Shown: positions 48,211-56,080 of the stretch, one piece after another | How positions within the stretch are numbered: the stretch's first letter is position 1 | How the letters are laid out: the number at the start of each line of letters is the position of its first letter | Program-made: the position numbers and the translations under genes | Notes under the pieces: model-generated | What the model was told of the DNA's origin: nothing | The model's database searches: none | Seen by the model: only the letters and a program-made list of their open reading frames with translations | Virus record (IMG/VR): IMGVR_UViG_3300042862_000163 | Coordinates: 50,521 to 114,520 of that record | Direction: 5' to 3' (one strand) | From: a virus | Lineage: Duplodnaviria > Caudoviricetes | DNA: 64,000 nucleotides

Positions 48211-48609
48211 TTAATAATTTAAAATTCCTGAATCTCTAATTGCTTCATAAAGTTCTGTCTTCTGTTTTGGAAACAGCACTGTGGCACCTATCAAATCTAA
48301 AAGATATTTCTTCCTAGTAGATATATCTAGTATATTCTCAGGGTTAAGTGATCTTTCTATTCTATTTGATAGTTCTGCTATCACTGTAGCTCCCTTCTTA
48401 AAATGCTCTGCTTCATCTTCATTTCTTACAGATATAAGCTTGCTTACATATCCTTCAATATGTGGAATAGTTTGTCTAAGAGATTGTTTAGCTCTTAATG
48501 TTAATAGACCATTAGCGTCCATTGTCTCAAATCTTTCCAATAGTGTTACAGAAAGTGCTAAACTCTCTATCACTACATCACTTAATTGTTCTGATGTTAA
48601 TTTATTCAT
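48211..48609 (-). CDS. Hypothetical protein
   Basis: ORF track. Confidence 0.6.
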   Translation of the reverse strand: MNKLTSEQLSDVVIESLALSVTLLERFETMDANGLLTLRAKQSLRQTIPHIEGYVSKLISVRNEDEAEHFKKGATVIAELSNRIERSLNPENILDISTRKKYLLDLIGATVLFPKQKTELYEAIRDSGILNY

Positions 48610-48733
48610 TTTCTTTTCTTCTTTTTAGGAGTTAAATGTTTCATTGGATTTCTTTTTTGATAGTTTGGATTCTCAACTTCAAATTCTTCAGAATTACTTC
48701 CAGTCTTGATTATTGTTTTAGGTTGTTTCATAA

Positions 48734-48886
48734 CTATTTATTTAAAGTTGTTACATTAACTACATTTACTTCTTTCTTTTTTCTAATCTTATCAAACTCT
48801 TCCCAGTCTATACTAAAAGTTCTTCCATATTTATCAGTTAGTTGACCATTCTTCATTTGAATATTAGATGGGTTTCTTACTCTCAT
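48734..48886 (-). CDS. Small hypothetical protein (50 aa, MRVRNPSNIQ...)
   Basis: Hand-translated; ATGA overlap with the primase relic. Confidence 0.5.
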   Translation of the reverse strand: MRVRNPSNIQMKNGQLTDKYGRTFSIDWEEFDKIRKKKEVNVVNVTTLNK

Positions 48887-48953
48887 ATAATTTCTCTTTG
48901 TGTTAAATATTTTTCTATTGTCTTTAATCCATGTGTTCTGGCAAGATCAGCCC
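48883..48953 (-). pseudogene. Relic duplicate of the primase 3' end (ADLARTHGLKTIEKYLTQREII-stop)
   Basis: Aligns without gaps to the present primase C-terminus ALLAKEKGLKTVETILKEKGII-stop. Confidence 0.75.
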
Positions 48954-48970
48954 TTAATTGTTTAAACATT

Positions 48971-49153
48971 TTATAATTTTTTTATTTCTAATTTAACTTC
49001 TTGCCAATAATCTAAAGATTCAAATACTCTTTCTTGTAATAAAACAGTTTCTATTTCTTCTACTGCTATAATTGCAGATTGTTTAGCATTGTGTTTATGA
49101 GTTTCAAAACTCATTTTATCAAATAACTCTTCAGCTTTATCTTTTGGACTCAT
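48971..49153 (-). CDS. Small paralog family B (PK.KA.EL...A.IAV.E...EVK.EI..L)
   Basis: Similar to the 55614 and 55841 ORFs. Confidence 0.65.
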   Translation of the reverse strand: MSPKDKAEELFDKMSFETHKHNAKQSAIIAVEEIETVLLQERVFESLDYWQEVKLEIKKL

Positions 49154-49940
49154 AATCTTTAAATTTTTTAAATTTTCTAATAAGTTTTAATTGTTTTTCA
49201 TCTTGATAAATGTAATTACAAAACGTTAATACATCTGCTATTTTACAAATAAATAAATACCAAGAGTTTCCTCTTTTGTCTTGTTTATATTTAGTCTTTA
49301 TGTTTAAATTAGTTTCTAACCAAGAACATAATCCTTTACAAAAATATTCACTACCTGTAAAGTTTAACATTATTCTTCCTTGAGAATTATAAATACAACC
49401 ATCACCATCAAAGTATCCACGAATGAAATCATGCATAAAGTTATCTGGTATATGATTAGGAAAAGTAAGAATCAAAGACTTGTTTTGTACAACTCCTAAT
49501 TTTCTTAAATCTTCTATTAATATCTTAGAGTTAAGTTCTATTTTTGACTGAGCTTTTCCTATATAGGATGTTCCTTTTATCAATTCTGATTTTCTTTGAT
49601 ATAAAGGTTTAGTGCTCTTGATGTCTTTTTTAAACTCTTCTAAGATGTATTCATCTTCTTTTGTAAGTTTTATGGCTAAACTATTCTTCAAAGGATAAAC
49701 ACATCCATCTGCATAGATCAAGCCTAAAAAATAAGCTTTATTAGATGTGTCTATTTCTTTGAAATACTCTTCATCAAATTTATATTTCTGATGACTTACT
49801 TCAATGTTGTTCTCTCTAAGATACTTTCCAACAGTTACATTTGATATTTCTAATTCATCTGCAATATCATAAGTACTTTTTCTACTAGATACATAACTAC
49901 TTATTATATAATCTATTTGTGTTTGTGTTATTTTTTTCAT
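49137..49940 (-). mobile_element. Free-standing LAGLIDADG homing endonuclease with N-terminal HTH
   Basis: AYFLGLIYADGC and FIRGYFDGDGC motifs. Confidence 0.92.
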
Positions 49941-49944
49941 AGTG

Positions 49945-49952
49945 TAAATATA
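49945..49952 (-). promoter_or_regulatory. -7-like element 4 nt before the endonuclease ATG
   Basis: Minus strand reads TATATTTA-CACT-ATG. Confidence 0.5.
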
Positions 49953-49996
49953 AGTAACTTGATTGATTTAGCAAAAGTAATTAGGTTAAATAATTG

Positions 49997-51001
49997 TTAA
50001 ATTATACCTTTTTCTTTTAGTATTGTTTCTACTGTTTTAAGTCCTTTTTCCTTTGCGAGCAATGCCCAATCTTTAATTCCTTCTCCTAGATATAGTCTTG
50101 GTACATTACAATACTCAAATCCAAACTTATCAGTTATTATTTGAGAATTCTTTACACCAGCTTCATCTGAATCAAAGGACAAGATTTGCCTATCAGAGTT
50201 TTCTTTTAGATACTGAACATTCTCTTCAGAGAAACATCCTGATCCTTCATTCTGAACAGCACAACAACATGGGTAAATCTTTTTCATCACCATGTAATCC
50301 TTTTTACTTTTATTGATGAATGCTACATCACAATCTTTGATGTCATCTAATCCATCCATCATAGTAATAGGTACATTATTAGGCATCCACTTATTCTTTC
50401 TATCTGCAAATGGTCTATAAATCTTCCAATGTCCTTCATATAGATAACCAAATCTTAATTCTGAGTCCATTATAGGGAACTTCTTTTTATTTAGATATAC
50501 AGTGTCTATCGAGTATACATTATTAGCTTTAAGATCATCTATGTCCTGATAATATCCATTCCAATATGCTAATTCTTCATGTGTAAACTTTCTTATTTTC
50601 ACTTGAATAAAGAACTCACGTTTAGAGGTGGCAGTTGGTTGAGCATAATCAGCAACAATCCTTTCATAATTCTTTGTAGAAGATATATTAACAATCCCTA
50701 GATCAAAATCTCTATCAATCATTACCAATGCTTCACGTAAGGATGGTAGGTTAAATAGCATTATCACAAAATCAAAACATCCACCTCTTTTGGTAGAATC
50801 TGAGAAATCATGAAAGGTTAATGCTTTTCCTTTATATCCTATAATGAATGAAGGACTCTTTTCATTTCTGAAAGGCGAATAAGTAACAACATTTATTTTC
50901 CAATTCTGGTGTGGCATATAGAACTTATAGATATCAAACTCTGTTATCTTATCTAATATGCTACCAGGTGTTAAGTTTGTTCTCTTTTTTCCTTGTATCA
51001 T
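49997..51001 (-). CDS. DNA primase (DnaG-like, TOPRIM)
   Basis: SPFRNEKSPSF..DF...GGCFDFV; KIYRP; KSKKD; FDSDEAG; KDW. Confidence 0.85.
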   Translation of the reverse strand: MIQGKKRTNLTPGSILDKITEFDIYKFYMPHQNWKINVVTYSPFRNEKSPSFIIGYKGKALTFHDFSDSTKRGGCFDFVIMLFNLPSLREALVMIDRDFDLGIVNISSTKNYERIVADYAQPTATSKREFFIQVKIRKFTHEELAYWNGYYQDIDDLKANNVYSIDTVYLNKKKFPIMDSELRFGYLYEGHWKIYRPFADRKNKWMPNNVPITMMDGLDDIKDCDVAFINKSKKDYMVMKKIYPCCCAVQNEGSGCFSEENVQYLKENSDRQILSFDSDEAGVKNSQIITDKFGFEYCNVPRLYLGEGIKDWALLAKEKGLKTVETILKEKGII

Positions 51002-51063: not shown

Positions 51064-51936
51064 TTAATAATCATCACCATCATCAGAGATGAACTGATCA
51101 GATGCAACTAAGTTATCCTCAGAATTGTAATCTTGTAAATCTTTCAATGTATAATAGTCTTTACAACCATATTCACCAATAACATTCACAACAAATTTCT
51201 CATGAGCTTTTAACTCTTTAGGTTTTTTACTCTTAAGAGACTCTTGTGTTCTTTTGTTTCCATAATCAACAAGTCTGAATTGTTTTAATGCATATCCACC
51301 TAGGAATGCTTTGTTATAAATTCCTTGATATTCTTTAGATTCACCATCTCTTTCTTTAATGATAACAGTTGCTAAAGCTAAAATAGACTTAGCCCATTCT
51401 CCATTAACTTGGTCTTTAAGATCTTTTACATTACCTCTCATCAACTTCTTCCATTCTAATTGTAGAACAGTGTCTGCATCACGATAATCAAGATCAGCTA
51501 ACCATGTACGCATAAAGTTATAAAGATCTTCCTCACCTACATTAGCCACTCTGAAATCTCTTCCTTTAGTAAACCATTCAGCAAGATCATTTTCATCACC
51601 TGCCCAAGAACACATACCAATAGAGTTGATATATTGTTTTTTGGTACCATCTTTGTTCTCACGTTCTTTATCTTCTAAGAAGAAGCTCACTTTGAACTTA
51701 TTATCATCTTTAATCTCTTGTAGCCATATATCAATACGAACATAGCTGTTACCATCTTTAGTCTCACCTAAATACTCAGCAGCTTTGCTGTCTTCTTTAA
51801 GCTCCATTCCAAGTTTATCTTTAAACTCTTCAATTGTTGGATTAATGGCAATTACGTTTGCTTCAAACAAACCTACCTTTTTACTGAAATCTCCACCACC
51901 TGTGTTTTCTCTCTTTTTTCCTCCGATACTACTCAT
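51064..51936 (-). CDS. Putative single-stranded DNA-binding protein
   Basis: V.AINP..EE motif, acidic C-terminal tail, located between a Sak4-like ATPase and the primase. Confidence 0.6.
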   Translation of the reverse strand: MSSIGGKKRENTGGGDFSKKVGLFEANVIAINPTIEEFKDKLGMELKEDSKAAEYLGETKDGNSYVRIDIWLQEIKDDNKFKVSFFLEDKERENKDGTKKQYINSIGMCSWAGDENDLAEWFTKGRDFRVANVGEEDLYNFMRTWLADLDYRDADTVLQLEWKKLMRGNVKDLKDQVNGEWAKSILALATVIIKERDGESKEYQGIYNKAFLGGYALKQFRLVDYGNKRTQESLKSKKPKELKAHEKFVVNVIGEYGCKDYYTLKDLQDYNSEDNLVASDQFISDDGDDY

Positions 51937-54549: not shown

Positions 54550-55617
54550 TTATTCTCTTAAAAAATATGATTTATTTACAACTGACTCATAATCTGAATC
54601 AGTCATATCTTTTTTTCTTTTTAACTCCTTGAACATACCGATTTCACCAAGGAATCCAAGACCAATTCTCACGTCGTCTTCACCATAACTATTCTTGAGT
54701 AGTCTCAAGCTTCTGAAGTATTTAGCTCCATATTGATCTGTTAGCTTATCAAGATCATATCCAGAAGGATCTGCCACTTTATATCTCATAGGATCAAATA
54801 ATGCCATAACAACATCAGCATCATTTTGTGTAGCTGAACTGTCTGCAAAATCTTCTAGTTGAGGTTCAACATCACCATTCTTAATCCTAGATGGATTAGA
54901 AATACTTCTGTTAAACTGACTTACCACCACTGGAGAATATCCATAGAAATCTCTAGCATATCTGAGTTCATCAGACATTTTGTCGATAGCTGCTTTCTTT
55001 GTTGGATGATCTTTAGTAGTCTTAAGTAGACCAATGTGATCCATTACCACCATAGTGATTTGAGTTGGATCATTTGGAATATAAATTTTATTCCATTTGT
55101 CTAACTGTTGTATCTCACCATTTTCTTCAGCATAAGTCTTTAGTTGTTTTGCTATACCTACAGGATTCTCTGGACCATCAATAATAGTTACTATCTCACT
55201 AAGATGATCTACATAATCTTTATAATATAAAAACAGATCATGCTCATCATTAGTCATCTTCTCTCTCCAGCCAAGTAACTTACCTACTGGAATGATTATA
55301 CCCTGGTCTAGAAATATCTTACGAGATACCCATTTGGCATACTTGTAAGTTCTACTTCTCTCCATGGACCTATACCATATCTTCACCTTAATACCTGAAG
55401 CAAGTCCTTCTTTAGACATGGCCCAATCAACAGGATTAAGAACAAATGCATCATCAATAAATGATGTCTTACCAGATCCAGTGTTACCACCAATCAAATA
55501 GTACATACCCTTACGAATACCTACATATCTAGTAAGTCTATCAAATCCCATAGGAATCCCTCTATTAAGATCATGCAATCCCTTCTCAACTTCAGCATTT
55601 AATAGTTCAAAACTCAT
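54550..55617 (-). CDS. dnaB: DnaB-like replicative helicase
   Basis: GGNTGSGKTS, SME, DHIGL, SQFNR, D..DS...DADVV.L, LKN.YG. Start refined to ATG 55617. Confidence 0.88.
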   Translation of the reverse strand: MSFELLNAEVEKGLHDLNRGIPMGFDRLTRYVGIRKGMYYLIGGNTGSGKTSFIDDAFVLNPVDWAMSKEGLASGIKVKIWYRSMERSRTYKYAKWVSRKIFLDQGIIIPVGKLLGWREKMTNDEHDLFLYYKDYVDHLSEIVTIIDGPENPVGIAKQLKTYAEENGEIQQLDKWNKIYIPNDPTQITMVVMDHIGLLKTTKDHPTKKAAIDKMSDELRYARDFYGYSPVVVSQFNRSISNPSRIKNGDVEPQLEDFADSSATQNDADVVMALFDPMRYKVADPSGYDLDKLTDQYGAKYFRSLRLLKNSYGEDDVRIGLGFLGEIGMFKELKRKKDMTDSDYESVVNKSYFLRE

Positions 55618-55844
55618 AATAATTCTATTTCTTGTTTTACTTCTAATAGATACTTCCATCGTTCTTTTTCCCATTCTTGAAATTCTCCACCAGCCCATTT
55701 GCTAATTTCTTCAAACATTTCATCAACTGCTATTAATGCACATTGTTTAGAAATTTCAAATGCAACATAAAACATCATAGTTCCTTCTTGAGGAAGTTCT
55801 TTAAATTTTAATACAAGCTCTTCTGCTTTTTCTTTTGGTGTCAT
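55614..55844 (-). CDS. Small paralog family B
   Basis: MTPKEKA..KQCALIAVDE..VKQEI. Confidence 0.7.
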   Translation of the reverse strand: MTPKEKAEELVLKFKELPQEGTMMFYVAFEISKQCALIAVDEMFEEISKWAGGEFQEWEKERWKYLLEVKQEIELL

Positions 55845-56080
55845 AATTTTTCTATTTCTTGTTTAACTTTAGTTAAGTAATCTAATTCAATAGCTTCAAA
55901 TTCACTTCTATCTTCATTAAAAACTTTCATTAAAGATAACATTTGACTAATCATCTCATCAACTGCTATTAATGCACATTGTTTTTCATATTCACATTTA
56001 GACAAATCAATACTATCTTCGTATCCATCTATTCTTGCAAACTTATCTAATAACTCTTTTGCTTTTTCTTTTGGTGTCAT
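55841..56080 (-). CDS. Small paralog family B
   Basis: Tandem paralog; 28-bp identical DNA at 55721 and 55957. Confidence 0.7.
   Translation of the reverse strand: MTPKEKAKELLDKFARIDGYEDSIDLSKCEYEKQCALIAVDEMISQMLSLMKVFNEDRSEFEAIELDYLTKVKQEIEKL

Follow-up and report, generated by a model that had tools for sequence, protein, structure and literature searches.

The DNA primase gene of a freshwater crAss-like phage very probably hosts a mobile cassette, consisting of a foreign 22-codon tail, a spacer, a LAGLIDADG homing endonuclease gene and a cargo open reading frame (ORF), that entered the gene between its KDW and AD codons and left the original gene end downstream as a relic. The stretch of DNA analyzed here (hereafter, the window) comprises 64,000 nucleotides (nt) and is the right-hand 64 kb (positions 50,521 to 114,520) of the 114,520-nt IMG/VR virus record IMGVR_UViG_3300042862_000163 (Duplodnaviria; Caudoviricetes), the completeness of which was judged to be 99%; the replication genes in the window are located on the minus strand. 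An earlier interpretation made from the letters of the window (hereafter, the sequence-only reading) described a primase ending, a LAGLIDADG gene, a small cargo ORF and a second tail further downstream, with both tails of the same length and register and the stop codon of the second overlapping the start of the next gene. The ORFs and the sequence agree with this description in each respect.

Organization of the primase locus

The locus consists of the following elements:

49997-51001, minus strand: primase ORF of 334 amino acids (aa), ending ...GEGIKDW-ALLAKEKGLKTVETILKEKGII-stop
50068-51001, minus strand: primase body up to the W codon of KDW, the recipient's own sequence and the left homology arm
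50064-50067, minus strand: GGGC, the last bases common to both tail alleles; left edge of the cassette and putative cleavage region
49997-50063, minus strand: imported replacement tail, (A)LLAKEKGLKTVETILKEKGII plus stop, matching other ALLAKEK tails at the nucleotide level
49941-49996, minus strand: cassette spacer of 56 nt, from the new stop to the start of the endonuclease gene
49137-49940, minus strand: free-standing LAGLIDADG homing endonuclease gene, 267 aa, assigned by Pfam, PHROG and fold
48971-49153, minus strand: 60-aa cargo ORF, the start of which overlaps the last codons of the endonuclease gene
48954-48970, minus strand: donor-derived filler of 17 nt between the cargo stop and the relic; right edge of the cassette, with no counterpart in AD-type loci
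48883-48953, minus strand: relic of the recipient primase tail, GG plus ADLARTHGLKTIEKYLTQREII plus TGA, with 22 codons at 48951-48886
48734-48886, minus strand: next gene, 50 aa, the original neighbor of the recipient's primase and the right homology arm

The primase ORF (PHROG 12622, 'DNA primase', E = 2e-32; Toprim_2 domain at residues 255-312) reads through the 22 imported codons to the stop. The replacement tail and the relic, both 22 codons long and in the same register, have 9 of 22 residues and 40 of 69 nt in common. The stop codon of the relic (TGA, 48885-48883) overlaps the ATG of the next gene within the string ATGA (48886-48883). In the window, the relic frame lacks a start codon, and only three codons separate the relic from an upstream TAA; in L083, a second carrier of the cassette, an ATG precedes the relic. 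Among the listed tblastn alignments of the window primase to primases of crAss-like phages, 18 of 40 end at query residue 311-312, that is, at KDW, which indicates that the 22-residue tail is a lineage-specific extension beyond the conserved Toprim region.

The primase loci used for comparison are the best 80 of at least 237 matching IMG/VR stretches, with primases 57-87% identical to that of the window, and the tails from the protein collection are those of the best 120 protein clusters of 1891 primase relatives. Other carriers of the replacement tail were sought using a degenerate pattern for KDWALLAKEKG, which yielded L081 from IMG/VR and L082-L086 from metagenomes. A search of IMG/VR with the endonuclease itself found no relative, and further carriers came from the metagenome pattern scan and from sequencing runs. 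The runs containing the stretch are labelled as lake, freshwater, river, soil and sediment metagenomes. The window primase is only ~25-31% identical to the primases of gut crAss-like phages and Cellulophaga phage phi14:2 (tblastn), and the phage GenBank collection contained nothing nearer than crAss-like primases of ~30% identity.

The relic is the recipient's own primase tail

Most of the relatives have a primase that ends KDW(A/S)D (hereafter, AD-type), and alignment of six of these (L007, L016, L026, L039, L002 and L049) to the window delimits the inserted segment. All six alignments break at 50063-50066 and restart at 48949-48953; the break falls exactly at 50064 in four of them (50063 and 50066 in the other two), the restart at 48953 in five, and both positions coincide in four. 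The break at 50064 together with the restart at 48953 places GGGC at both junctions. The alignment of L007 spans the relic and the next gene (89.3% identity over 234 nt, E = 2e-85) and that of L026 spans the relic (88.9% over 81 nt, E = 6e-24). The relic is identical to the working tail of L045 in 65 of 69 nt, and its mean match is 55.1/69 to the 65 non-ALLAKEK tails compared with 42.0/69 to the six ALLAKEK tails. Moreover, in L007, L010, L011 and L016, a homolog of the 50-aa gene directly follows the (A/S)D-tailed primase and starts at the last bases of the latter. Judging from these alignments, the resemblance of the relic to AD tails is no chance match. The proposal of the sequence-only reading that the relic is the ancestral tail is upheld by the match to working AD tails, that of L045 in particular, and by the resumption of the AD-type alignments at 48953.

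Filled and empty sites

The endonuclease gene and the ALLAKEK tail occur together in the window, L082 and L083, and this endonuclease follows the primase in none of the 80 best IMG/VR primase loci. L082 contains the ALLAKEK tail, an identical spacer and the first 22 codons of the endonuclease, after which the contig ends. L083 is complete and encompasses an ALLAKEK-tailed primase, the spacer with two differences, an endonuclease 94% identical to that of the window, three small ORFs, two codons and, last, the relic WADLARIHGLKTIEKYLTQKEII, the stop codon of which overlaps the next gene. The small ORFs of L083 are homologs of the 50-aa and 41-aa genes of the window, with another 60-aa ORF between them, and the two codons in front of the relic are the first two of the gene that follows the 50-aa and 41-aa genes in the window. 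The spacer was not found by alignment in L081, L085 and L086, nor in the AD-type loci L039, L007, L016 and L002.

L083 forms a filled/empty pair with L024, which has a plain AD tail with nothing inserted. Identity between the two is 97.7% in the left flank (2077 nt) and 98.1% in the right flank (638 nt, starting from ATTGGGC), and the L083 relic is identical to the working tail of L024 in 69 of 69 nt; on the primase-body tree described below, L024 and L022 are sisters of L083. Between the window and L083, identity is 75-92% in the SSB-like gene (51064-51936 in the window) and in the body of the primase, and about 95-100% from ~50085 through the tail, spacer and endonuclease, and the same holds for L082; over the imported tail itself, identity to these two loci is 92-95% or higher. 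By this measure of divergence, the cassette is younger than its flanks.

Contigs from sequencing runs provide further instances. A contig of run X3, which carries no flag as a potential source sample but may stem from the same sampling campaign as the window, is identical to the window over 48600-49947, that is, over the relic, the cargo ORF and the endonuclease. A diverged contig of run X4 is colinear with the window over 48881-50137 and shows 23 listed differences (~2%, with at most 4 more unlisted) over 48954-50059. Its relic has 8 differences in 71 nt, the first of them 9 nt from the junction, and, decoded by hand, represents the common ADLARIH allele. Past the relic, X4 has a different gene, the loose end matching the start of the 54-aa ORF of L081, and its primase is diverged upstream of 50137. 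The relic allele and the flanks of X4 thus show the same cassette with the same right junction in a second background that keeps its own tail as the relic. Contigs of runs X19 and X20 have the arrangement of L083, in unspliced form, with a joint 48881 to 49149 (6 nt shared) at which the endonuclease is joined directly to the 50-aa gene; both runs are RNA libraries in which DNA carry-over is possible; the contigs cannot show transcription, strand or transcript ends, and the uncovered parts of the stretch carry no meaning.

The relic begins with GGGC after the donor filler in the window and with (AT)TGGGC after two codons of an unrelated gene in L083. As their cargoes differ, the two arrangements go back to separate founding events, and the two relic starts lie only 1-3 nt apart, exactly at the point where the AD and ALLAKEK alleles diverge, which points to a site-specific double-strand break at this position. 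The endonuclease is polymorphic for presence and absence among close relatives, with a co-transferred flank, as seen in the L083/L024 pair, the jump in identity and X4. The same three observations, along with the coincident junctions, bear out the claim of the sequence-only reading that an intron-less homing cassette invaded the primase gene.

Tail alleles and the primase-body tree

The sequence-only reading anticipated that endonuclease-free relatives would end KDWADLARTHG..., and an end of the type KDW(A/S)DLA... was found in 75 of the 80 best IMG/VR loci; of the remaining five, two have WALLAK variants (L047 and L069) and three have other ends (L033, L044 and L074). The best 120 protein clusters divide into 104 with the (A/S)D tail and 16 with ALLAKEK. 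Across the 75 loci, conservation of the AD-type consensus is high through GAAGGAATTAAAGATTGGGCTGAT. The replacement tail of the window matches the tails of L083 and L086 in 64 of 69 nt and those of other genomes in 62-64 of 69, with a mean of only 38.9/69 to the 65 non-ALLAKEK tails. The tail of L047 is a mosaic, ALLAK-IHGLKTIE-NILKEKELL (L047:2440-2525), and L069, the primase of which is 67% identical to that of the window, has WALLAK in an otherwise AD-like tail; these two tails could have arisen by patchy conversion or by separate changes that let the putative target escape cleavage.

The tail type is uncoupled from the primase body. In a FastTree phylogeny built from the 305 residues that precede KDW (197 rows, of which 159 are distinct), 20 changes are required for the 24 ALLAKEK-type rows compared with an average of 22.6 in label shuffles (23 of 500 shuffles were as low), and the starred branches alone force 9 changes. 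A reduced set for IQ-TREE comprised 68 rows (21 ALLAKEK and 47 others) and was made by removing L084, which is identical to L081, as well as L047 with its mosaic tail and 23 distant-clade rows, L085 among them, and by thinning the AD rows to 17 named ones and 30 randomly chosen unique bodies. The resulting tree requires 18 changes, and the approximately unbiased test rejects a single ALLAKEK clade (lnL difference 464.5, p = 9e-102). At the level of individual proteins, P0005 and P0035 differ at 10 positions and P0016 and P0103 at 11, all within the last 21 residues. The bodies nearest to that of the window (P0001, P0002 and P0004) all have (A/S)D tails, which resemble the relic.

The endonuclease and the cargo

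The endonuclease matches LAGLIDADG_3 in Pfam (E = 1.5e-13) and PHROG 4645, 'endonuclease' (E = 4.8e-55). It contains two LAGLIDADG motifs, around residues 72-79 and 173-181, in which D78-G79 and D178-G179-D180-G181 are invariant among 40 aligned homologs. The AlphaFold model (pLDDT 92.7, pTM 0.83) consists of an N-terminal three-helix region followed by two alpha-beta-beta-alpha-beta-beta-alpha domains, the pseudo-dimeric fold. A Foldseek search with this model retrieved I-Tsp061I, bI3 maturase, I-AniI, I-SceI and I-OnuI as the best matches (probability 1.00), with 144 PDB chains at E <= 0.001, and a sequence-only search of the PDB returned nothing at E <= 1. In the protein collection, the endonuclease has 953 relatives, five of them at 82-95% identity (the endonuclease protein clusters are P0121-P0125); in the phage GenBank collection, the endonuclease search found just a trivial 90-nt match in the LAGLIDADG motif region of Bacillus phage 0305phi8-36. 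The gene is present in a single copy in the 114.5-kb genome and is free-standing, with its own start after the primase stop and the spacer and no Rfam intron match. Given the intact motifs, the predicted fold and the relatives, the gene looks functional. LAGLIDADG enzymes cleave long targets site-specifically and leave 4-nt 3' overhangs.

Other LAGLIDADG genes, 32-39% identical to this one, are present elsewhere in the replication module of 13 of the 80 best IMG/VR loci. One is located between the SSB-like gene and the primase (L007:3262-3999); others are found at ~500-1170 in L010, L011, L038 and L040-L042, and ~2-3.8 kb downstream of the primase in L022, L024, L029, L043 and L051. The replication module is a hotspot for LAGLIDADG elements.

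The 60-aa cargo ORF belongs to PHROG 21441 (unknown function; E = 1.3e-9). Native copies of this family are located upstream of the helicase in the window (55614-56080) and also in L089; the 3' 108 nt of the cargo ORF are 93.5% identical to the native L089 gene. In the window, these are two tandem small genes of 76 and 79 aa (55614-55844 and 55841-56080, minus strand) just upstream of a DnaB-like helicase gene, and given these family members near the helicase, the cargo ORF is an ectopic third copy. The longest ORF of the helicase (54550-55698, minus strand) starts 27 codons upstream of the position at which its relatives begin with MSFELLNAEV... and extends into the small gene before it; translation probably starts at the internal ATG instead. 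L088 (473-1484) has a member of the cargo family, followed immediately by a different LAGLIDADG gene and a gene resembling DNA polymerase, and this family of small genes recurs next to homing endonucleases. The 17-nt filler is colinear in the X3 and X4 contigs; its donor was sought via homologs of the 60-aa ORF, and L088 and L089, which have members of the family, lack the filler.

Alternative explanations

Several observations weigh against homing as the origin of this arrangement. The ALLAKEK tail occurs without the endonuclease in L081/L084, L085 and L086, where it is the sole end of the primase. In L081/L084 and L085, its stop codon overlaps the start of the next gene in the usual way, and in L086, a plain TAA is followed by the next ORF ~25 nt on; the primase body of L085 is only 64% identical to that of the window. 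The sequence-only reading expected no WALLAKEK tail at empty sites, which is the case for the great majority (75 of the 80 loci have W(A/S)D) and fails for these few relatives, along with the variants L047 and L069. A third tail type, KDFADWAKF... (KDFADWAKFEGLGAIDKFLREKGF), is found in L033 (3959-4999) and L044, the primases of which are nested within the window clade. In L033, ~190 nt without coding sequence come after this tail and no endonuclease gene adjoins the primase end; L044 ends ~60 nt past the primase and has a LAGLIDADG homolog ~2.9 kb upstream. A third tail type with no adjacent endonuclease suggests that some of the tail swapping may be ordinary recombination. The overlap in GGGC partly follows from the W-A codons present in both alleles and is therefore no cleavage footprint by itself. 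Finally, the full cassette with a relic is known from only two loci plus the contigs of four runs.

The endonuclease-free ALLAKEK carriers also change the view of where the new tail came from. The proposal that the cassette rebuilt the primase with a C-terminus of its own making had to be abandoned, as the ALLAKEK tail in endonuclease-free relatives indicates a circulating natural allele that travels with the endonuclease. Probably, on comparison of tail sequences, this is the natural allele of a distant lineage that housed the endonuclease, given the similarity of the second half of the replacement tail to the end of the primase in the distant relatives L078 and L079 (...GMKTVEQILKQKGIL). The allele may exist and spread independently of the endonuclease, or may persist after loss of the latter, for example, via recombination between the tail and the relic. 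The last ~22 bases of the oriented L086 contig are probably an artefact of the contig end, the terminal string looking like an Illumina adapter.

Could the block have been placed by ordinary illegitimate or modular recombination, with the endonuclease a mere passenger that made no break here? The endonuclease-free tail swaps just listed (L081/L084, L085, L086, the mosaic L047 and the third type in L033/L044) and the mosaic nature of the replication module, rich in other LAGLIDADG genes, speak for such a scenario. We nevertheless consider it improbable: two independent relics start 1-3 nt apart at the divergence point of the tail alleles, both edges of the shared cassette are found at the same point in the further background of X4, and the window, L082 and L083 all pair the endonuclease with the ALLAKEK tail. 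Duplication of the primase 3' end in place, followed by divergence and later settling of the endonuclease between the copies, would explain why the tails are equal in length and register and is a very unlikely account, given that the tails share just 40 of 69 nt, that the upstream copy matches other genomes in 62-64 of 69 nt whereas the relic matches working AD tails in 65 of 69, and that the empty-site locus L024 shows no duplication.

A group I intron with an endonuclease ORF, extending from 50063 to 48954, with KDW spliced to an ADLAR... exon and the ALLAKEK codons in frame by chance, deserves attention because excision of exactly this segment would restore the AD-type frame and because phage group I introns often bear homing endonucleases. 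This candidate, to which we assign a very low probability, was rejected on three grounds. No Rfam intron family was detected in 48500-50500 at E up to 10 (cmscan), and the DNA outside ORFs amounts to 56 plus 17 nt (73 nt), too little for a ribozyme core. When the boundary is moved by hand through GGGC in the window or ATTGGGC in L083, a U ahead of the 5' site and a G at the 3' end of the intron never occur together. The endonuclease-free genomes with the ALLAKEK tail have no other primase end, and the length of 22 codons and the related sequence likewise identify it as a coding tail. The contigs of the two RNA libraries are also colinear with the unspliced form, a weak point given the possible DNA carry-over. 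The absence of an intron asserted in the sequence-only reading is supported by the Rfam search and by the lack of a boundary that satisfies both splice-site rules. A chimeric assembly, in which two co-occurring strains with different tail types were joined, is conceivable in that both alleles circulate in the same kind of habitat, and is the least credible of these explanations: the junctions recur in separate assemblies, namely X3 (48600-49947) and X4 (48881-50137), with the sister arrangement in L083 and X19/X20. Thus, the arrangement is probably not an assembly artefact.

A model of cassette insertion and its implications

Based on the anatomy of the locus and the distribution of the alleles, we propose the following model for insertion of the LAGLIDADG cassette. 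The endonuclease of a co-infecting donor phage would cut the AD-type allele at or next to TGGGC. The left end of the break would then invade the donor primase, and synthesis would copy the divergent tail, the endonuclease and the cargo; because the founding donor had no homology on the right side, the copy would be closed by illegitimate joining to the broken right end. The recipient tail from GGGC on would survive as an untranslated relic that still bears the start region of the next gene, and the primase, presumably essential, would stay whole because the cassette supplies a working end. The full target is restored at neither of the two new junctions, and for this reason the enzyme should leave the genome that carries it uncut, with the ALLAKEK tail being the putative cleavage-resistant allele. 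Once formed, the relic would serve as a right homology arm and enable precise homing into further AD-type genomes.

A combined proposal, which we offer tentatively and with somewhat less than even confidence, is that the relic is the working right arm of a 'spliceless intron' with a replacement exon end and that the tail swap might alter the partner of the primase. If so, precise homing into the coding sequence of an essential gene would be possible without a ribozyme, and each event would turn the tail of the victim into the next relic; if the tail affects partner choice, the cassette would also impose replication incompatibility, or marker exclusion, on co-infecting relatives.

Replacement of a gene end represents a third way for a selfish endonuclease gene to reside harmlessly in a gene that is presumably essential, beside RNA splicing (introns) and protein splicing (inteins). 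Loci without the insertion, two cassettes of independent origin, one cassette that has moved to a further background and genomes that have the resistant-looking tail but lack the endonuclease together represent most stages of homing in the population, so that both the cycle of homing and the formation of new insertion sites by one-sided illegitimate repair become directly testable. A probable target site is mapped for an uncharacterized LAGLIDADG enzyme, and the C-terminal tail of these primases emerges as an exchangeable module. In genome annotation, a short orphan gene end that follows an endonuclease gene should be read as an informative scar.

Comparison with known systems

Intronless homing in T-even phages offers one point of reference. 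In the available text of PMC2988022, the free-standing endonucleases of these phages (seg and mob; intronless homing and marker exclusion) spread when double-strand breaks are repaired during co-infection, and flanking gene sequence is co-converted from one phage to the other, as proposed here for the primase cassette. The T4 seg and mob genes are intergenic and their enzymes cut at a distance, whereas in the primase cassette the insertion point, the putative cut site and the allele boundary coincide within coding sequence; that text describes no replaced gene end with a stranded original for T-even phages. One-sided homing with illegitimate, microhomology-mediated repair has been demonstrated experimentally in T4, according to the same portion of PMC2988022, and homology on one side with a microhomology junction on the other is the founding repair route that we propose; the T4 case is an engineered intron system, whereas the products seen here are natural and intron-free. 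Phage precedent for such a cassette was not found in the literature covered, including the accessible parts of PMC10448857 and PMC2988022; subscription journals lie outside this coverage and a precedent may exist. Mobile group I introns with LAGLIDADG ORFs are similarly inserted at the cleavage site, with the halves of the target flanking the element and providing homology, but the primase cassette differs from them in having no ribozyme and no splicing, the gene being kept at the DNA level by the replacement end.

The other point of reference is the mobile endonuclease ORFs (mORFs) of fungal mitochondria, which create gene hybrids. As far as the available text of PMC3630166 goes, atp6, atp9, cox2 and nad3 of Glomus sp. 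have each acquired a foreign C-terminus together with an endonuclease ORF, behind which their native C-terminus is retained, and atp6 of Allomyces macrogynus, as cited there, has the same arrangement. The phage locus shares with these an in-frame foreign C-terminal segment that precedes an endonuclease ORF (of the LAGLIDADG type in Glomus atp6), a native C-terminus ~1 kb downstream, and the grouping of the native copy with host relatives as opposed to a divergent inserted copy (in that text, 63.5% nt identity between the copies in Glomus atp6; 58% in the phage). As in a mORF-type hybrid, the in-frame C-terminus completes the gene and the relic groups with the host lineage (65/69 to L045 and, for the L083 relic, 69/69 to L024). 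The phage endonuclease is a separate ORF behind a stop codon and a 56-nt spacer, in contrast to the in-phase fusion reported in the same text for Glomus atp6 and nad3. Also unlike mORFs, the host is a bacteriophage and the gene encodes a DNA primase, the cassette carries extra cargo ORFs, and the population data show that tails have been exchanged many times, with some pairs of proteins distinguished by the tail alone. The primase cassette is a new, phage member of a type of mobile element known from fungal mitochondria.

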